A DNA stretch of 22,098 bases from a bacterium (GCA_043803945.1 JAZDJN010000100.1:1-22098); one strand, 5' to 3'. Counted from the first letter of the stretch, positions 268-21,968 are shown. Numbers and translations: made by a program. Notes: a model not told the origin generated them from the letters alone.

Positions 268-2655
268 TTATTTTTTGTTCTTGACATATTTATCGGCCCA
301 TTCAAACATCTCTGCAAGTGTATGGAGATTGGATTCACGCGCAGAGTATCCATGGCTTTCGAATGGCAGCAGCACCAGCCGTGCTGTCCCTCCATTGCCG
401 CGAATTGCCTGAAAGAGCCGGTCGGACTGGATTGGGAACGTACCCTGATTATTGTCCGCTTCACCATGTATCAGAAGAATCGGTTCATTAATTTTATTGG
501 CATACATGAACGGGGAGACTTTCATATACACATCTTGTGCATCCCAGAAGGACCTTCTTTCGCTTTGGAATCCAAACGGAGTCAACGTACGATTATAAGC
601 ACCGCTTCGTGCTATACCGGCAGCAAATAAATCGGAATGAGCAAGGAGATTCGCCGTCATAAATGCTCCATAACTATGGCCCGCAACGGCGACACGCTTT
701 GGATCAATGACACCCATCTGATCCAGCTTATCGATGGCAGCTTTAGCGGAACTCACAATCTGTTCGATGAAGGTATTATTCATGGTTTCAGGATCGCCGA
801 CAACAGGCATTGTCGCATCATTTAGTACAGCGTAACCCTGAGTGAGGAACAGGAGTTGCGAGGCCCCCCTGAAGAAGGTGAAGGCATTCGGTGAGACGCG
901 AACCTGTCCGGCTGTTCCGGCATCTGAGTATTCAAGCGGATAAGCCCAGATTATACATGGCAACCGCGTCCCCTCTTTGTATCCGGGAGGCAAATACAAG
1001 GTTCCGGAAAGTGGCACACCATCAGCACGCGTATACTTGATCAACTCTTTCCGAATCCCGGTCAGTTGAGGTGCGGGATCCTTAAACTGTGTCAGAGGAG
1101 TGCTAGATTTGCTCTGAGCTTCCAGAAGGAAATAATTTGGGACCTCGGTTTTCGATTCAGAGCGAATCACAAAATTCGAACGCGATCCTTTCACAAATCC
1201 CATGAATCGTTCCAACTTTTTCTCATCGGATTGGAAGAGTCGTTCTTTTTGAAGTGTGACAAGATTGAATTTATCGATGAAAGGCCTCTCGCCCTGTTCT
1301 GAGGCTCCATCACCGGTGAGGTAGATCCAATCGCCGTCTTGCAGTAATGTCGTCTCACCATTCGGTTTCCGGTCCGCCAGAGGGCGGCCTGGATCATTGT
1401 AAGCATCCTGTGTGCTGAGGTCAAACAGAGTTTTCTTTGTCTCAGGTTTTTGCAGATTTACAAACCAGGTTGTTCTCCACCGACGATCGCGATTTGTCTC
1501 AGTCAGAATCGCTGCATCCTTTTGTGCTGTCCAGGCAAGGCCGCTGAATCGATGCTGGACTTTCATAATTTCAGAAGGTTCTGCCGTGAAGGGTGCAGAG
1601 AGTGTTAACACCCGATCACGATTCGGTACCTTCTGCATAGGATCGCCTCCATCCAGAGCTTCAGCCCAAACCAACGTTGCCGGATGCAGGGATTGCCAGT
1701 CGATGCTGCGCGGCCCTTTTTGTACACCCTGTGTAGGAACATCATCTGCAATCGGAAGGTCTGCCAGTACCTTAACATGCTTTCCCTTTGCATCCCAGAT
1801 CTCGATGCTTCGTGCAAAGGACGAAGATGGAACACGATATGAAAATGGCTGCTTTATCCTGCTGACGAGCAGATATTGTTCCGAGGGAGAAAAATCGATA
1901 CTCGTGTACATATCTGGTTTCCCAAGTAATTGCAGCGCACCATTCGTGCTGCTGACGAGACCCAACTGTGACATTGAAAAGTATGCAAAGAGTTCTTCAT
2001 CATAGGGGGTCTTGAGAAGGTCCTGAAATGTGGGCGTTCGCGAAATGCGGCCTGAAGTCTCTTCCACATTAGGTCCAATCGGCACCGATTGCGGCTTCGG
2101 AGATTTGGAGTTAGTCGAAGGTACCATTTTCACAAGAAGATGCACATTATCCCCCATCCAGCTCACGGGTTGACCGAGGATATCATTGAGGTGGAATGAT
2201 CCAACCCGATGGCATTTTGCACTCTTTACTTCTGCAACCCAAAGTTCTACACCATTTTCAACATCTCTTGAAAAAGCGATTTTTGTACCATCGTGCGACC
2301 ATAGCGGCATACCAATTTTTGCATTTGCAGGAATGTCGATGCGAACCGGTTTGCCTTGTGGTAATTGTTGAACGAGTATTCCTTTGGTATAATTGAGACG
2401 CTGCCGAGCGTGGAGCTGTGGAGAGATCCTCATGCCGGCAATTCGATGGATTGGCTGCACAACCAGAGAGAGCGGCGGCATCGCATTAGACTCGATGAGC
2501 ATCATAGCATCGCCACGAGGACTCATACTCACCGAAGGTGTTGGAGGAGCATCGACGATATCGAGAACTTCTTTTGGAGGGACTTTATATCGTATTTGGG
2601 CATTGAGGGAAAGTGAGACAGTTAGTGCGAACAGGATGATAATCATTCGACGCAT
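268..2655 (-). CDS. S9 family serine peptidase (prolyl oligopeptidase fold; glutamyl endopeptidase/S9D-like), exported
   Basis: 795 aa. Signal peptide MRRMIIILFALTVSLSLNA-Q, beta-propeller-like N-region, nucleophile GHSYGA, acid HGEADNN, base ESHGY. AAGGAG SD at 2663-2668. Confidence 0.93.
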   Translation of the reverse strand: MRRMIIILFALTVSLSLNAQIRYKVPPKEVLDIVDAPPTPSVSMSPRGDAMMLIESNAMPPLSLVVQPIHRIAGMRISPQLHARQRLNYTKGILVQQLPQGKPVRIDIPANAKIGMPLWSHDGTKIAFSRDVENGVELWVAEVKSAKCHRVGSFHLNDILGQPVSWMGDNVHLLVKMVPSTNSKSPKPQSVPIGPNVEETSGRISRTPTFQDLLKTPYDEELFAYFSMSQLGLVSSTNGALQLLGKPDMYTSIDFSPSEQYLLVSRIKQPFSYRVPSSSFARSIEIWDAKGKHVKVLADLPIADDVPTQGVQKGPRSIDWQSLHPATLVWAEALDGGDPMQKVPNRDRVLTLSAPFTAEPSEIMKVQHRFSGLAWTAQKDAAILTETNRDRRWRTTWFVNLQKPETKKTLFDLSTQDAYNDPGRPLADRKPNGETTLLQDGDWIYLTGDGASEQGERPFIDKFNLVTLQKERLFQSDEKKLERFMGFVKGSRSNFVIRSESKTEVPNYFLLEAQSKSSTPLTQFKDPAPQLTGIRKELIKYTRADGVPLSGTLYLPPGYKEGTRLPCIIWAYPLEYSDAGTAGQVRVSPNAFTFFRGASQLLFLTQGYAVLNDATMPVVGDPETMNNTFIEQIVSSAKAAIDKLDQMGVIDPKRVAVAGHSYGAFMTANLLAHSDLFAAGIARSGAYNRTLTPFGFQSERRSFWDAQDVYMKVSPFMYANKINEPILLIHGEADNNQGTFPIQSDRLFQAIRGNGGTARLVLLPFESHGYSARESNLHTLAEMFEWADKYVKNKK

Positions 2656-16037: not shown

Positions 16038-17477
16038 TTATTGAATCGGTTGGTTGCCAATTCCTTTCTTTTTCATCAGAGCCTCGATGGCATCAATCTC
16101 CTTTGGAGATTCCCATGAGAGGATTTTGTTTCCAGTCTCCGTGATAAGAACAGTATCTTCAATCCTTACGCCGATATTATAGTATTTCGGATCAACACCC
16201 GCAGATCCCGCGGGAACATAGAGCCCCGGCTCCATGGTATAAACCATCCCTGGTTGATACATCATCCCACCCATATCATGAACCTGTAATCCAACGCCAT
16301 GACTGTAGCCGTGCGGTGCAAACTTTCTGTACTCAGTACGGTCTTTGGTTTTCAAAATGCCGATCTTCACCAAGCCTTCCATTTGAATACTATCGACGAT
16401 CGCGCTAACTTTCGAAACAGGATTTCCGGATTTCATAGTTTCGATGGCCGCCTTATTCGCCTGAAGGACTATCTCATAAATCTGGCGCTGCGCCGGACTG
16501 AATTTTCCATTCGCTGGAAACGTGCGTGTGATATCGGAAGCATAGTCCATATACTCTGCACCGCAGTCAGCAACAATGATATCGCCATCGTTGATCGGCC
16601 GGCGGCAAGCGTCATAGTGCAGAACCAGAGAATTTTCACCCGCACCAACAATGGAGGAATACGCAGCCTGACGACTTCCTAATTTGCGAAAAACATATTC
16701 ATACACTGCCTGGAGATCGAACTCATGCATCCCCGGTTCACACGACATCATGGCCTGATTATGGGCAAGCGCGCTGATATGTGTCGATTTTTCGATCAGA
16801 CTAATTTCCTCAGGCGATTTAATTCCTCGCATCTTCTGGATAATCGATGTGGGGTCGCTCACCGTGTAGGTAGAATCTTTTTTCTGCAGCAGTTCGGTCA
16901 AGGTCCGGGTATCGAGCCCCATCCGCATCCCCATCCTTTGCGGTACCTCCTCTGAGGCCAGGCGTCCATAAATCTTTTTGGGATTCGCTGCAGCGAGAAG
17001 AGCAGGGAGCATTTTCGCAAAGTCGCTGTTCGGCAAAGCATAGGCCAGCCCCCGGAGTGCTACAGCGCCTTCAGGCCCATAATACTTTCCTGTCCATTGC
17101 TCACTTCGCGGATTTCTTGGCTGAACAAAGAGTATCTCTCGCACTGTGATCTCCTCATTCGGATTTGTTACACTCTTCACCTTAATTCCTTTCGGCACCA
17201 GCACGAGCAGAGCGTTCGGTTCAGGGAATCCGGAGAGATAGAGCAAATTCAAATCTTGCTTATAAAGTCCTTCTCCTTGGGGACGCGCACTTTGGAAAAA
17301 GGCGATTGCACCGTCACCAATTTGTTTCATAATATTCTCGCGCCGCTCCCGATAGACTGATCCTGCAAGCATATCCTTGTCATGTTCAACGAGGAGCTTG
17401 AGGTCCTGCGCAAGCATCAACCCACTCAACAATAAAACCATTAATCCCACCAGTGATAGCCGGTTCAGTGTTCCCAC
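16038..17477 (-). CDS. pepP: Xaa-Pro aminopeptidase (aminopeptidase P, M24B) with signal peptide
   Basis: AMP_N domain (YKQDLNLLYLSGFPEP). Catalytic domain with RGIKSPEEI, LHY, metal ligands ADCG/SDITRT, HGVGLQVHD, TMEPGLY and GVRIED. GTG 17477 preferred because GGAGG lies 5 nt upstream; in-frame ATG 17489 is the alternative. Confidence 0.88.
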   Translation of the reverse strand: MGTLNRLSLVGLMVLLLSGLMLAQDLKLLVEHDKDMLAGSVYRERRENIMKQIGDGAIAFFQSARPQGEGLYKQDLNLLYLSGFPEPNALLVLVPKGIKVKSVTNPNEEITVREILFVQPRNPRSEQWTGKYYGPEGAVALRGLAYALPNSDFAKMLPALLAAANPKKIYGRLASEEVPQRMGMRMGLDTRTLTELLQKKDSTYTVSDPTSIIQKMRGIKSPEEISLIEKSTHISALAHNQAMMSCEPGMHEFDLQAVYEYVFRKLGSRQAAYSSIVGAGENSLVLHYDACRRPINDGDIIVADCGAEYMDYASDITRTFPANGKFSPAQRQIYEIVLQANKAAIETMKSGNPVSKVSAIVDSIQMEGLVKIGILKTKDRTEYRKFAPHGYSHGVGLQVHDMGGMMYQPGMVYTMEPGLYVPAGSAGVDPKYYNIGVRIEDTVLITETGNKILSWESPKEIDAIEALMKKKGIGNQPIQ

Positions 17478-17720
17478 TGGATCCTCCATTTCTTGTTCAT
17501 GAGATGTGAAATAATTTATAGGATATCATGTCCATGCAGATTTGTTGCTGCTGATTATCAAACCATCCGTATCAATGTCAGAATCCAATATTGTTAAGGT
17601 ACTGGAGATCCGAGCCAAAGCCTCTCGAAGCTCGATTGCTGTATAAGACGAGGCAACAGAATTGAAGTTTCTTGATAGAGTATTCTTCACTATAGTCGTA
17701 ATTCTTTTCTGTCCAAGAGA

Positions 17721-20498
17721 TCATCTCATGAGGATCATTTTCTGTGTGGAGTGATAACCATTCGCTTCAAATCGATAGAAATAGACTCCTGAGGCAGCAC
17801 TGATGCCATTGTTCGCCTTACCGTTCCAACTCACAGAATACCTGCCGGCTTCCTGCAGCTCATTAATCAGGGTGGCCACTTCCCGCCCCAGCATATCGAA
17901 AACTCGTATATTTACCATGCCTGAGGTCGGTATGCTATAGATAATTTTTGTGGAAGGATTAAACGGATTGGGATAGTTTTGTGAGAGTTCATACACCAGT
18001 GGAATTCCTTCCACCTGTTCAACAGCGACAAGCCCGGTAACGGCGGCAATCACGGGACGCAGACGGAGATTGGCCATATTCGCTGGCAAAGCTAAACTGG
18101 AGGCGGGGTCACTGAAGTTTATCCAATTGTTGGATGTAAAAATCGACGAGCGATTTGTGACAGCAAGCCCAGCGTCAGTACGAAGGATGAGCCTGTCGCC
18201 CGAAGTAGGAGTTGATACAACAATGTGATAGTCCGTATTTGCGACAACGTTAACATTTGTTCCTGTCAGATCAATATAATTGTTTACACCGGCACTCAGT
18301 TTGGCAAAGGGATGATTAACTGTGGAACCAAGTTTGCTGTTTGGTATTCCGGCAACACTGCCGGGTTTATTCGAGTACACTTCACATGCCAAAGGTCCTG
18401 TTCCTAAGATCGGAGTAATGTTTTGAGTAGTAATGTTGAGATACAACCCAACAAGGGATCCTGATGTTGCTGGTGTGAAACGAACAGCGAATTTCTTGCT
18501 GTTATCGAGAGTGGTAGTGCTGTTCGTTCCATCGACTTCATAAGCCAGAATTGTGCGGCCGGCAACTGCATTCGCATTAATCGCCCTGACCATAGCTTTA
18601 AAGACATCCATCTTCCCATAACCCCAAATCGGATTTGGTGTTGCTCCAGTGAAGTTGTCGGTATTAACTGTCGAGATTAAGAGAGATTTAATCTGGGCTG
18701 CCGTCAGTGCAGGTTTTGCCCCCAACAATAAAGCTGCCGCACCTGCGACATGAGGCGAAGCCATACTCGTACCCTGAGAAAGGTAGTGTTTTTGATCTGG
18801 ATACAGTGTCGTTGGAATGCCGGATGTATCAACTGATGATGATAGTGCCGATGCAATGCCCTGACCAGGAGCAGCAATGTCGGGTTTCTGCCTCCCATCG
18901 CGTGTGGGCCCGATGGAACTGCTCGACGCAATATTTGAAGTTCGATTTGTAGTTGTGGAATATGTTCGGCCGCCCCACGCGAACGTAGGCCACGACCATT
19001 TTGTGACATAATTCGCGACTGTAATTGCACCCTCAGATGTTCCCGGCATGCCGATCGTAAGATTGGTATTACCTCCGGCAACCGATACGCTTTGGGTTCC
19101 CACCACATCCTTCACAAGCCAGCCATCGTACTTCTGTAATGAGCTCGAGTTGTTTGTGACAGTAATTTTCCATGTGCCGCTCTTGGGAACATTTGAATTA
19201 TTCTCACTCACGATAACCTGTAAGTAACGTCTGCCACTAAAAGAATAGATCCGATTGTTAAGGGTCATAGTCCCATCAGTAGTGGAAGGTGCAGTACCCG
19301 ATTGGTCTGCGAGTCGCGTATAGCTAATTCCGGAAGGTGAAGTCAAGCTCACAGAGACATTAATGTTATTATCGAAACAAACCTCCAACCAGAAGGAATC
19401 ATTGTCCAATCCAGAGGTCGGTGTATAGGAGGGAACATTTACATCGAATGTTGTGGATCCTGCTGCAGGAATCGTACCTCCAATGTGAATAGGGTTATCG
19501 CCATCATTACCGGCGGAAATAGCCACGACTCTTCCGGGAGTCTGGACAAATGTATTGACAGCTTGCTCATAGTCTCTTGTACCATCGTGAGGGCCTGAGT
19601 GACCGCCGATGCTCCAATTCAACACAACCGGTTTCCCCAACTGTTGAGACTTCTGGCGTGCATAATCCAGGCCGTCGATCATTCTCGATTCGCTAAATGA
19701 ACCATCTCCGCCTTTGACAGCAATAATATCCGCTTCGGGTGCGACACCTGTAAAATTTCCTTTTGCAGCCAAACCATTACTAACCGCAATCCCCGCAACA
19801 TGGGTACCGTGACCGTTCGTGTCTTTTTCCCGAACGAATCCTGTCGGAGTTCCGTCCAATTCATTTTCTATCTGCTGCTGTGTATATTCAACACCATAGG
19901 AAAATGGGGATGGGCTGTTTTCATTTCCCGTGGGAGAGATCGTCTGATCCCAGATGAACAGAATTCTTGATTTAGTAGTGTCAAGGGGATTACGAAAATC
20001 GAGATGCCTCCAGTCAATTCCGCTGTCATAGATTACAACAATGACACCCTTACCCTTGTAGGGTGTCTTGTTTACAAATCCGGAGTGCAATAAGGCGACC
20101 CCGATTTCCGGAACACTAAGGTCCAGTTGAGGATAATTGATCGAACCGGGATCGATTGAGGAGACATTCTGCTGCTTCACCGCGCCACGCATCTGATCTG
20201 CAGTCAGCCTGGCAGTAACGAATGTATTCCATACAGAACCGATCTGCACTCCGAGTATTCTCAGGGCATCTGGTTGCGTTGTGTGAATGATTGCCTCATA
20301 GAGCGGGATTCCGGTTTGGGTGGTACCAGTTTGGATTACCATCTTATCAAGATGCATCGATTCGATTCCATTTTCTTCCAGAAGCATTTGAAAAGATGGG
20401 TGGAGCTTCAATCGTTCAACCTCTTTCAATTGCTGTGAAGATAGAATTGAAGCAGCCGCGAGAATAAGGAAGAGACTATATCGAATGCGAGTCAGCAT
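17721..20498 (-). CDS. S8 (subtilisin-family, Csp-like) serine protease with propeptide, inserted beta-domain and T9SS type A C-terminal sorting domain
   Basis: 925 aa with signal peptide. Triad YDSGID, GHGTHVAG, GTSMASPHVAG; oxyanion SAGNDG; long beta-rich insertion between the oxyanion Asn and catalytic Ser. CTD ELSQNYPNPFNPST...DMLGREVATL...SGVYFYR...KMILMR. Confidence 0.94.
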   Translation of the reverse strand: MLTRIRYSLFLILAAASILSSQQLKEVERLKLHPSFQMLLEENGIESMHLDKMVIQTGTTQTGIPLYEAIIHTTQPDALRILGVQIGSVWNTFVTARLTADQMRGAVKQQNVSSIDPGSINYPQLDLSVPEIGVALLHSGFVNKTPYKGKGVIVVIYDSGIDWRHLDFRNPLDTTKSRILFIWDQTISPTGNENSPSPFSYGVEYTQQQIENELDGTPTGFVREKDTNGHGTHVAGIAVSNGLAAKGNFTGVAPEADIIAVKGGDGSFSESRMIDGLDYARQKSQQLGKPVVLNWSIGGHSGPHDGTRDYEQAVNTFVQTPGRVVAISAGNDGDNPIHIGGTIPAAGSTTFDVNVPSYTPTSGLDNDSFWLEVCFDNNINVSVSLTSPSGISYTRLADQSGTAPSTTDGTMTLNNRIYSFSGRRYLQVIVSENNSNVPKSGTWKITVTNNSSSLQKYDGWLVKDVVGTQSVSVAGGNTNLTIGMPGTSEGAITVANYVTKWSWPTFAWGGRTYSTTTNRTSNIASSSSIGPTRDGRQKPDIAAPGQGIASALSSSVDTSGIPTTLYPDQKHYLSQGTSMASPHVAGAAALLLGAKPALTAAQIKSLLISTVNTDNFTGATPNPIWGYGKMDVFKAMVRAINANAVAGRTILAYEVDGTNSTTTLDNSKKFAVRFTPATSGSLVGLYLNITTQNITPILGTGPLACEVYSNKPGSVAGIPNSKLGSTVNHPFAKLSAGVNNYIDLTGTNVNVVANTDYHIVVSTPTSGDRLILRTDAGLAVTNRSSIFTSNNWINFSDPASSLALPANMANLRLRPVIAAVTGLVAVEQVEGIPLVYELSQNYPNPFNPSTKIIYSIPTSGMVNIRVFDMLGREVATLINELQEAGRYSVSWNGKANNGISAASGVYFYRFEANGYHSTQKMILMR

Positions 20499-20525
20499 GA
20501 GAGAATCCTTAAGGGATGAGATATG

Positions 20526-20912
20526 CTAATGAATAATATTTTTTGAACTATTCTGAATCGAGCGCACAACGATAGAACCGGCAACCTTTTTCAACTCCGC
20601 TAATGAGAGTCGGGCTGTTATAATCTCTCCGAAGACACTCCCAGGTTGAATTCCAAGCTTCTTTAATTCTTCTACATTATTCGTCCTGATAATGACTCCC
20701 ACTTCGACCCTTCCATCAGACCGGGTTGAAACATCATATTCAGATTCATTGGCAAGCCCTGTCGTGAGGAGTTTCGCCAGGAATGGATCGAGTTTAGTTT
20801 GTTCCTCAAGAGTGAGCGTATAGCGTTCCTGTTGAACCGTGGTTGATGTGGATGCGCATCCAGAAAAACAGAGAAACGCTCCAATCGCTGCAATAAAGAA
20901 TAATAATTTCAT
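20526..20912 (-). CDS. Lipoprotein consisting of a stand-alone S8 propeptide-like domain (candidate protease inhibitor/chaperone)
   Basis: Start moved to ATG 20912 (128 aa; MKLLFFIAAIGAFLCFSG-C19 lipobox), which removes the overlap with the upstream gene. Residues 67-128 align ungapped with residues 63-124 of the downstream protease at 20/62 identity. Confidence 0.8.
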   Translation of the reverse strand: MKLLFFIAAIGAFLCFSGCASTSTTVQQERYTLTLEEQTKLDPFLAKLLTTGLANESEYDVSTRSDGRVEVGVIIRTNNVEELKKLGIQPGSVFGEIITARLSLAELKKVAGSIVVRSIQNSSKNIIH

Positions 20913-20967: not shown

Positions 20968-21504
20968 TTATTTTGAAGGTTTCTTTGCTTCGGGATGCTT
21001 CTGCAATTGGATGTATTGCTGGAAGGTCTCATAGTCGGTTGATCGGTGGCAGTGAATTATCTTCCATCGATCACCCTTCCGCTGCACGACAAATGTCGTA
21101 GGAAGGTACTCTTCAAGGAGCACACCATCAATCGTGGAGTTCTGCTGCAGGATAAAGAAAGCATACCCTCCATCTCCAAACGAGCGAACTGTCAGGTTCT
21201 CAATGCGAATGTCGTAATCTGTAATATGCGAGCGTGCGTTTCTGAGCCTGGCTTTTGTGGAATCAAGGGGCTCGGACCATCCCCACGGCGTGATATAATA
21301 AATATCGGGTTCGAAGTAGTACTCCAGCAAACTGTCGGTATTCACGGATTGGCCGGTGTATGCTTTTTTCATTCCGTCGTAGAAGAAGTTCACCAAATCC
21401 GTTATGGCAGATTCTTCCTGCGCAGTGGAACGAATAGGGGGTTCCGTTTTTTTCGCTGTGCATCCAATGATGAAAACACAACAGAGGAGAACTAAGGTTT
21501 TCAT
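20968..21504 (-). CDS. NTF2/SnoaL-like (DUF4440-like) domain lipoprotein
   Basis: 178 aa. Lipobox IIG-C; IENLTVRSFGDGGYAFF and TTFVVQRKGDRWKIIHCHRS typical of NTF2-like folds. GGAGGA upstream. Confidence 0.85.
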   Translation of the reverse strand: MKTLVLLCCVFIIGCTAKKTEPPIRSTAQEESAITDLVNFFYDGMKKAYTGQSVNTDSLLEYYFEPDIYYITPWGWSEPLDSTKARLRNARSHITDYDIRIENLTVRSFGDGGYAFFILQQNSTIDGVLLEEYLPTTFVVQRKGDRWKIIHCHRSTDYETFQQYIQLQKHPEAKKPSK

Positions 21505-21505
21505 A

Positions 21506-21739
21506 CTATCCTCCTATTTGAGACATGGTTCGAGTTGGTCGGACATAGTCCGGGCTATTGATAAGATGATCGCGTTCTTTTTTCCAAACTGCCTTCACAA
21601 TTGTTTCCTGTATTTCAATCTCTGAAGTCTGGCCTTTGAGAAGTTCTCGCAAATCAATCTCCTCCTGAAAAAAGAGGCACGTTCTTAATTTTCCGTCTGC
21701 AGTCATTCTCACTCTGTTGCAATGGGAGCAAAACCTTTG
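21506..21739 (-). pseudogene. moaA: 3' fragment of GTP 3',8-cyclase MoaA (C-terminal Fe-S domain only)
   Basis: FCSHCNRVRMTADGKLRTCLF (CX2CX13C) and terminal MSQIGG are MoaA signatures. The ~30 in-frame residues upstream are not MoaA-like and the ORF opens only at 21829, so the radical-SAM domain is missing. Confidence 0.82.
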
Positions 21740-21968
21740 GAGTTCATCGAGATATTTTACAAGCTTCAATCGTGGATCAATATATCTATAGGCACGTGTA
21801 AAATCAAGATAAGCCCTTCTCACCCTCAATCGACTTTCTGACCCAGGGATGTTTCAAGAAGAGCTGCTTCTTGATTTTCAATCCATATTAGATTATCTTA
21901 TGACCATAGATTTAGATGGTAAGCGTATTCTTGACCCTCGTGGTCATTTTTTTTCATACTAGAGAGCC

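Follow-up and report, generated by a model that had tools for sequence, protein, structure and literature searches.

Potempins are lipoprotein inhibitors of Tannerella forsythia that are encoded directly upstream of peptidases exported through a type IX secretion system (T9SS), including the S8 peptidase mirolase, whose inhibitor is PotC; their scaffolds are OB-folds with five strands or up-and-down beta-barrels with eight (PMC9890683). We analyzed a 22,098-nucleotide (nt) stretch of bacterial DNA (GCA_043803945.1, JAZDJN010000100.1:1-22098; hereafter, the window), in which the open reading frame (ORF) for a 128-residue lipoprotein (20526..20912, minus strand, stop codon included) directly precedes that for a 925-residue S8 protease with a T9SS sorting domain (17721..20498, minus strand). 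From sequence and models, the lipoprotein is best explained as a paralogue of the neighboring Csp-like S8 protease's prodomain that stands free and carries a lipid anchor. The locus shares with potempins a small lipoprotein (about 100-130 residues) whose gene immediately precedes, in the same orientation, that of a T9SS peptidase, a cognate enzyme that can be an S8 subtilase with a prodomain of its own, and a proposed role as an envelope-level block on a protease that the cell itself secretes. Potempins differ in being beta-barrels unrelated to the peptidase that place loops into its cleft, whereas here an alpha/beta prodomain homologue is predicted to insert a free C-terminus. Furthermore, inhibition, inhibition constants, structures, and surface location have been measured for potempins, whereas the present lipoprotein is known from sequence and models. 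We rejected a potempin homologue on the predicted fold, which is an alpha/beta propeptide and not a beta-barrel.

Stand-alone, propeptide-like inhibitors of subtilases have been described elsewhere, and one account lists Pleurotus POIA1, the yeast proteinase B inhibitor, Arabidopsis SPI-1, Toxoplasma MIC5, and Plasmodium SUB1-ProM (PMC6993865). Like the window protein, these are small and free-standing, with a propeptide fold and a subtilase target; POIA1 was retrieved in our structural scan at Z 5.1, and SUB1-ProM likewise adjoins subtilase genes. The listed proteins are eukaryotic (fungal, plant, or apicomplexan) and soluble, whereas the window protein is bacterial, lipid-anchored, and part of a two-gene unit with T9SS cargo. 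It also differs in being clearly homologous in sequence to its neighbor's prodomain while going undetected by the Inhibitor_I9 model.

A third precedent is the Clostridium protease CspB, whose prodomain stays bound after autoprocessing, works in trans, and blocks the active site with its C-terminal P3-P1 residues; an inserted jellyroll domain contacts the prodomain, and the Clostridioides difficile enzyme cleaves after Gln (PMC3567191). CspB (4i0w) is the closest structure to the window protease and shares a beta-rich insertion in the catalytic domain, and 40 of 74 members of the lipoprotein family have Q or H as the last aligned residue. In CspB, by contrast, the prodomain is described as part of the same polypeptide with no lipid anchor, in a Gram-positive spore former and an enzyme that is not T9SS-secreted. 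Aeromonas sobria, too, has a separately encoded partner adjoining a bacterial subtilase, but the Aeromonas protease reportedly needs its partner to fold for want of a propeptide, whereas the window protease keeps its own. That partner, ORF2, is reported as an external chaperone for a serine protease that has no propeptide (Kobayashi et al., 2015).

Our full-text searches, read from their listings and in a collection that leaves out most subscription journals, brought up no bacterial lipoprotein copy of a subtilase prodomain. An earlier, sequence-only reading of the window had known of no description of the arrangement for T9SS S8 proteases. A qualification is needed: PotC/mirolase already provides a lipoprotein inhibitor gene just ahead of a T9SS S8 protease gene (PMC9890683). 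The gene order thus has a precedent, and the novelty lies in the fold and in the derivation from a prodomain.

Homology and predicted fold of the lipoprotein

The ORF coordinates confirm that the lipoprotein gene ends 27 base pairs before the start of the protease gene, with the intervening spacer at 20499..20525 (no strand assigned). The 128-residue frame is nested in a longer, 168-residue ATG frame extending to 21032; a start at this upstream ATG was rejected because it would overlap the upstream gene and because homologues begin at the signal peptide. The N-terminus, MKLLFFIAAIGAFLCFSGC (beginning MKLLFF and ending FSGC), is a hydrophobic signal peptide closing with a lipobox cysteine at Cys19 (residues 1-19; 20856..20912, minus strand), as identified by direct reading and by a script run over the family. 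C19 is nearly invariant in the alignment. In 67 of 74 members, the script detected a cysteine lying between a hydrophobic stretch and the KLDP motif. The residue at position -1 is G in 34, A in 14, and S in 7, together 55 of these 67. One of the failing members was missed through the motif rule, and most others are N-terminally short gene calls. The mature lipoprotein comprises 109 residues, and the linker from the cysteine to the domain has a median length of 13 residues across the family. The protease's own signal peptide has no lipobox.

Homology to the protease is evident in the pairwise comparison. Residues 67-128 of the lipoprotein align without gaps to protease residues 63-124 with 20 of 62 identities, a second block (lipoprotein 40-49 against protease 31-40) adds 5 of 10, and LDLSVPEIG follows directly on the aligned Q124 of the protease. 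The sequence-only reading had drawn attention to both blocks and to the stop at LDLSVPEIG, and recounting found them exact. BLASTP of the lipoprotein against the protease yields 28 of 94 identities over protease residues 28-121 (E 6e-8). At the level of families, hhalign of 74 stand-alone proteins against 60 proteases returned a probability of 99.7% (E 4.7e-26, 126 columns). The alignment spans the signal peptide through the last residue of the lipoprotein, which falls on the ...NYPQ ahead of the proteases' conserved DVSVPETGA. The cis prodomain of the protease was accordingly delimited with hhalign to residues about 22-124 (20127..20435, minus strand); profile A1, built from the stand-alone proteins, matches positions 20127-20477 at E 1.6e-23.

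The AlphaFold2 model of the lipoprotein (predicted local distance difference test [pLDDT] 89.6, predicted template modeling score 0.73) contains two N-terminal helices followed by a strand-helix-strand-strand-helix-strand arrangement, with strands at 69-77, 90-94, 97-102, and 116-121 and helices at 80-85 and 104-111. The same order of elements is found at the N-terminus of the protease model. A wide VIA-align scan of 48,161 PDB chains, independent of Foldseek, placed subtilase pro-regions, pro chains, or POIA1 in all of the best 17 rows (Z 8.4 to 4.5), with the first unrelated fold, an ACT-type domain, at row 18. Z values were 8.4 for 8c4x_B (root-mean-square deviation [rmsd] 2.5 over 74), 7.4 for ProN-Tk-SP, 6.1 for both PCSK9 and the subtilisin BPN' prodomain, 5.8 for the CspB prodomain, and 5.1 for POIA1. 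Foldseek found no PDB match at E<=0.001 (best E 0.053); its best rows were propeptides, namely 8c4x_B, ProN-Tk-SP, CspB, and the Tk-subtilisin propeptide (rmsd 1.9 over 65 columns). Searching PDB sequences with a profile gave nothing under E 0.08, and the sole relevant row was 8c4x_B at E 0.38. We base the fold assignment on the structural scan in combination with the sequence homology. Together, they make it well supported that the lipoprotein is a homologue of its neighbor's cis prodomain, with a predicted subtilase-propeptide fold over 20529..20825 (minus strand), much as had been proposed from sequence.

A word-indexed homologue search with the small protein returned only the query, and the family to which the lipoprotein belongs surfaced by exhaustive HMMER search of 1.84 billion representatives, which retrieved 91 clusters at E<=0.001 and 28 at E<=1e-10. 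All but one of the 91 proteins (90/91) are 173 residues or shorter, and none is a full-length protease. Positions conserved in at least 90% of the 74-member alignment are C19, K40, D42, L45, G67, G87, and V116. With hmmscan, the window lipoprotein matches no Pfam family at E<=0.1 and only DUF5352 (E 0.13) at E<=1. Across the 74 members, the commonest Pfam family is CspB_prodomain (PF18425), found in 8 of 74 at E<=1 with a best value of 4.3e-4, although the window protein itself has no match to it at E<=1. The 25 families displayed, out of 31 found across these members, do not include Inhibitor_I9. The nearest ESM Atlas clusters are labeled hypothetical protein; an I9 cluster appears there at only 0.87 and serves as a lead only.

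The neighboring gene encodes an S8 protease by its match to PF00082 (E 7.1e-47). In the catalytic subtilase domain (residues 125-642; 18573..20126, minus strand), D158, H230, N331, and S578 are invariant in a 60-sequence alignment; following standard subtilase motifs, we take D158, H230, and S578 to be the catalytic triad and N331 the oxyanion Asn. A beta-rich insertion lies within this domain at residues about 338-466 (19101-19487, minus strand). The C-terminal sorting domain (residues about 840-925; 17724..17981, minus strand) is of T9SS type A, scoring 44.7 bits with TIGR04183, above the curated cut-off of 23, and 26.4 bits with Por_Secre_tail (PF18962), just below the cut-off of 27. Relatives of the protease are numerous, with 1,167 at E<=1e-20 among 8,000 scored candidates. 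For the full-length model (pLDDT 84.2), the closest solved structures are CspA, CspB, and CspC, and CspB 4i0w aligns at 26-27% identity, rmsd 3.3-3.6, and a TM-score by target of 0.83-0.85. The best NCBIfam models, CspBA (135 bits; cut-off 1250) and CspC (108 bits; cut-off 675), both score below threshold. Given that the CspBA score falls far under its cut-off, the protease is Csp-like in its modeled structure and not a Csp orthologue.

About 150 open frames in the source genome match the sorting-domain part of the protease profile A2, which makes for a very large T9SS secretome. The genome yielded a single stand-alone prodomain copy. A second related protease is encoded on contig C10, with no stand-alone copy alongside.

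Gene linkage and evolution

Linkage between the two genes was surveyed with the protein as query in 41 relatives and with the profile in 401 genomes each from the phylum and the class, with loci read using hidden Markov models derived from the alignments. The survey yielded 37 stand-alone copies in 36 genomes. As the sequence-only reading had led us to expect of homologues of the lipoprotein, 34 of the 37 directly adjoin a co-oriented S8 protease gene, 30 of them upstream and 4 downstream. Gaps in the 27 measurable pairs range from -11 to +239 nt under a first-Met rule. Within the window organism's family, 12 of 22 sampled genomes had a match, and all 12 of those carry a stand-alone copy; another genome of the family, G004, encodes the protease without one. 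A contig search with the protease alignment, driven by the sorting-domain pattern, returned 73 loci with only 4 S8 catalytic regions and no stand-alone copy.

The 4 downstream copies all come from one family of the class. In these loci (L053, L054, L055, and L137) the order is reversed, the copy follows the protease gene at a distance of 15-50 nt, and the proteases are shorter, at about 750-800 residues. Three copies do not adjoin a protease gene. At L010 (genome G012), the protease start is 1.3 kb off, past an inserted ORF; the insert of about 1.3 kb holds an ORF that by eye resembles a GIY-YIG nuclease, together with short direct repeats. At L057, the 6.4 kb downstream hold no protease, and upstream the contig stops after 177 nt, while the copy at L136 is cut by the contig start and has no protease in the 1.5 kb downstream. 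At two further loci, L134 (G714) and L141 (G675), the protease frame is split into two or three beside an intact stand-alone copy, which could reflect sequencing error or decay of the protease with the small gene persisting.

The lipoprotein gene bears the marks of selection. The ratio of nonsynonymous to synonymous substitution rates (dN/dS) is 0.07-0.43 in the seven of nine orthologue pairs with finite dS, and that of the protease in the same genomes is 0.09-0.25. The position of the stop is conserved as well: 29 of 74 members end in the H128 column, 54 within 2 more residues, and 63 within 3. This column, occupied by Q in 22 members, H in 18, and N in 10, aligns with the last prodomain residue ahead of the conserved (L/T/N)D(L/V)SVPE of the proteases, and in paired loci the copies end 0-3 residues past the column preceding that motif. 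The sequence-only reading had weighed an unexpressed, truncated protease paralogue, for which dN/dS would be near 1 and the stop not conserved; the observed values contradict it, and selection and conservation together rule out a truncated pseudogene. That the gene is conserved, under purifying selection, and not a remnant is well supported by these sequence comparisons.

Phylogenetic analysis places the origin of the copies far back. A careful tree over 94 columns, in which many forks are unresolved, combined 37 stand-alone domains with 39 prodomains and was built after two rows with extreme branch lengths (L033_S and L034_P) and the duplicate loci L011-L013 had been dropped. The window copy is one of 24 stand-alone rows, drawn from three families, that form a clade with support 98/92; another 9 rows make up a second stand-alone clade (support 97/92), and 4 long-branch rows stray. 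Save for the stray L040, no copy pairs with the prodomain of its own neighbor. Because the stand-alone copies do not group with neighboring prodomains, the duplication is old, with the copies forming clades of their own that span several families. The earlier proposal of a prodomain duplication followed by a switch to a signal peptidase II signal thus retains its core, in the homology and in the lipobox conserved across the family, with the qualification that the event is not recent. The best tree needs 5 label changes, and forcing one stand-alone clade costs 4.26 log-likelihood units (approximately unbiased test, p 0.43); a single origin of all stand-alone copies is neither rejected nor demonstrated.

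Copies and proteases also diverge in parallel. In 19 pairs, the distances among copies correlate with those among the cognate catalytic domains (Spearman 0.68, with 0 of 2,000 permutations as high), a figure overstated by the non-independence of kin. The correlation, which had been put forward as a check on co-phylogeny, fits co-inheritance. On the catalytic-domain tree, paired and unpaired proteases are intermixed, with 10 changes, at least 5 of them forced. The tails of lipoprotein and cognate prodomain deviate jointly in the g17, f40, and f52 lineages, as judged by eye; these are too few independent lineages, and the pattern was not used as evidence.

Predicted complex and proposed function

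To model the complex, the catalytic domain (residues 125-642, with a 60-row alignment) was paired with the mature lipoprotein (residues 20-128, with a 74-row alignment). The complex scored 0.95 in three of three runs, and the best of three controls scored 0.03. Of 80 solved complexes, 58 attained the mark applied to this score, as did 2 of 110 mismatched pairs, counts that hold roughly here given the use of our own alignments. The runs share at least 90% of contacts, with a partner pLDDT of at least 88. On the lipoprotein side, the predicted interface comprises the tail (122-128), the sheet (72-76, 89-101, and 117-120), and the N-terminal helix (39-47). On the protease side, it comprises the catalytic residues and their neighbors (158-159, 228/230, 328-331, and 576-578), together with strands 266-270 and 296-302, helices 270-278 and 308-317, and segments of the inserted beta domain (364-368, 398-402, and 414-427). 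The predicted binding is that of the canonical prodomain mode. The models agree with the expectation, voiced in the sequence-only reading, that the C-terminal tail would occupy the active-site cleft. Residues 122-128 (20529..20549, minus strand), ending in SKNIIH, are a predicted active-site plug on the strength of this interface and of the conserved stop position.

The most likely reading, which we hold with fair confidence from sequence and models, is that the lipoprotein is a membrane-tethered inhibitor mimicking the cleaved prodomain. Cargo of the T9SS acquires its fold in the periplasm, ahead of export, and for proteases the folded form is a zymogen blocked by its prodomain (PMC10202324). 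The protease would cross the inner membrane by Sec, fold in the periplasm on its own prodomain, autoprocess near ...NYPQ|LDLSVPE, and then exit by T9SS. Mature enzyme without its own prodomain near the envelope would be captured by the lipoprotein in the manner of the cleaved prodomain. The beta-sheet of the lipoprotein would pack on two surface helices (protease about 266-278 and 308-317), its N-terminal helices would contact the inserted beta domain, and the free tail, ...SKNIIH-COOH, would lie product-like in the S4-S1 cleft against Asp158, His230, and Ser578. The outcome would be a membrane-tethered, reversible block, presumably at 1:1 stoichiometry, that shields the cell's own envelope proteins.

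Several observations weigh against an inhibitor of this kind. The protease retains a complete prodomain of its own, and a second blocker is not obviously needed. Eighteen related proteases have no adjoining copy, including sister paralogues in G006 and G633 and the second protease of the source genome, so the partner is dispensable for the protease family. The Pfam Inhibitor_I9 model (PF05922) gives the lipoprotein no match at E<=1. Acidic residues after the lipobox cysteine are the kind of signal that directs Bacteroidota lipoproteins to the surface; such residues are scarce here, with two or more D/E at positions +2 to +5 in 3 of 67 members. The last aligned column is Q or H in just 40 of 74 members, and the tails of distant clades differ. 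As for the fold, VIA-align Z values of 5-8 lie within the common range, where a score under 8 may stem from a widespread arrangement, and Foldseek ranked unrelated folds in between the propeptide rows. The high complex score may itself reflect likeness to prodomain:subtilase complexes, since these have already been solved, rather than binding by this particular copy.

A more elaborate possibility, which we advance tentatively and think doubtful, is an exchange of prodomains. The stand-alone copies would then constitute a lineage-wide, detached, lipid-anchored immunity module, and the mature protease would be passed from its cis prodomain to the tethered copy, giving a reversible, envelope-bound latent pool in which extracellular proteolysis is set by release, not by synthesis. 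A given copy may in addition serve paralogous proteases or neutralize the kin proteases of neighboring cells.

Two other functions can be drawn from the same evidence. As a trans-acting folding chaperone, the lipoprotein would help the catalytic domain, or that of a paralogue, to fold or refold at the membrane, with inhibition as a by-product. Subtilase prodomains are folding catalysts, and the CspB prodomain aids maturation in trans (PMC3567191); the predicted interface, being the canonical prodomain interface, would suit chaperoning equally, and the lipoprotein gene comes first in 30 of 34 linked pairs. We nevertheless consider this role unlikely. Every aligned paired protease except the diverged L041 keeps a prodomain recognized by profile A1, and given that the cis prodomain is both kept and nearly invariant at some positions of the 60-protein alignment, a second chaperone looks redundant. 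It is this intact cis prodomain that speaks most strongly against chaperoning as the primary role. Paralogous proteases without a partner also occur in the same genomes, and a lipid anchor with so short a linker suits surface capture over the folding of a 900-residue cargo.

As a retention or hand-over factor, the lipoprotein would replace the cleaved cis prodomain and hold a latent protease on the envelope or on vesicles for signaled release, a matter of positioning and timing over self-protection. The Csp-like character of the protease speaks for it, given that CspB keeps its prodomain bound as a switch (PMC3567191). Likewise, PotA retains karilysin on cells and vesicles (PMC9890683), and the tight complex predicted here touches the inserted beta domain much as the CspB jellyroll contacts its prodomain. 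However, T9SS type A cargo is already surface-attached through the sorting domain (PMC10202324), and the 109-residue mature protein shows no release signal or extra domain. We therefore judge retention as a main function improbable. A non-functional leftover from a partial duplication of the 5' end of the protease gene, suggested by a copy of the first part of the adjoining gene on the same strand, is hardly credible in light of the dN/dS values, the 91 clusters in public data, the conserved stop, the gain of a conserved lipobox that the protease's signal peptide does not have, and the old clades of several families that the copies form.

A tethered, prodomain-mimicking inhibitor, if borne out, would constitute the first bacterial family of stand-alone subtilase-propeptide inhibitors. 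It would represent a second, independently evolved answer to the problem that potempins address, namely sparing a cell's own envelope from a large secreted T9SS proteolytic arsenal, and it would illustrate a simple route to a specific inhibitor in which a prodomain is copied, cut at the processing site, and lipid-anchored. Practical value would follow from ready-made, highly specific inhibitors for an abundant environmental class of subtilases, and the exchange between cis and trans prodomains would be directly open to study. The analysis also singles out a family, numbering at least 91 clusters, that lay beyond the reach of every Pfam model applied here.

Surroundings of the gene pair

We infer that the lipoprotein and protease genes share one transcription unit. 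In a consensus scan, site numbers were near the level of shuffled sequence (7 promoter-like against a mean of 8.1 and 7 terminator-like against 3.9), with no site of either type in the spacer between the two genes; the sigma-70 consensus may not suit this phylum. A SnoaL_3-like lipoprotein gene (PF13474, E 1.2e-5) lies 55 nt upstream of the lipoprotein gene at 20968..21504 (minus strand). Among the loci scanned, three others from this family (L008, L009, and L023; phmmer E 4e-53 to 3e-41) have homologues of this SnoaL_3/DUF4440-like lipoprotein directly upstream of the pair, making the gene a partly conserved neighbor of the pair.

Farther upstream, positions 21506-21829 (minus strand) encode only the C-terminal part of a MoaA-like protein (107 residues; Mob_synth_C, E 1.2e-19). 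No frame runs on upstream to the contig end, and the fragment looks like a truncated remnant beside a repeat. This dispersed repeat occupies the last 140 or so bases of the contig (21958-22098) and has 24 further matches in the genome, several at 98-100% identity; it is probably the reason that the contig stops at 22098. On contig C10, a copy of the repeat at 70732-70834 closely precedes the paralogous protease. Two more peptidase genes are encoded in the window on the same strand as the pair, an S9 prolyl-oligopeptidase-type gene at 268-2655 (minus strand) and an M24 Xaa-Pro aminopeptidase gene at 16038-17489 (minus strand), the latter directly downstream of the S8 protease, which suggests a protein-degrading neighborhood.

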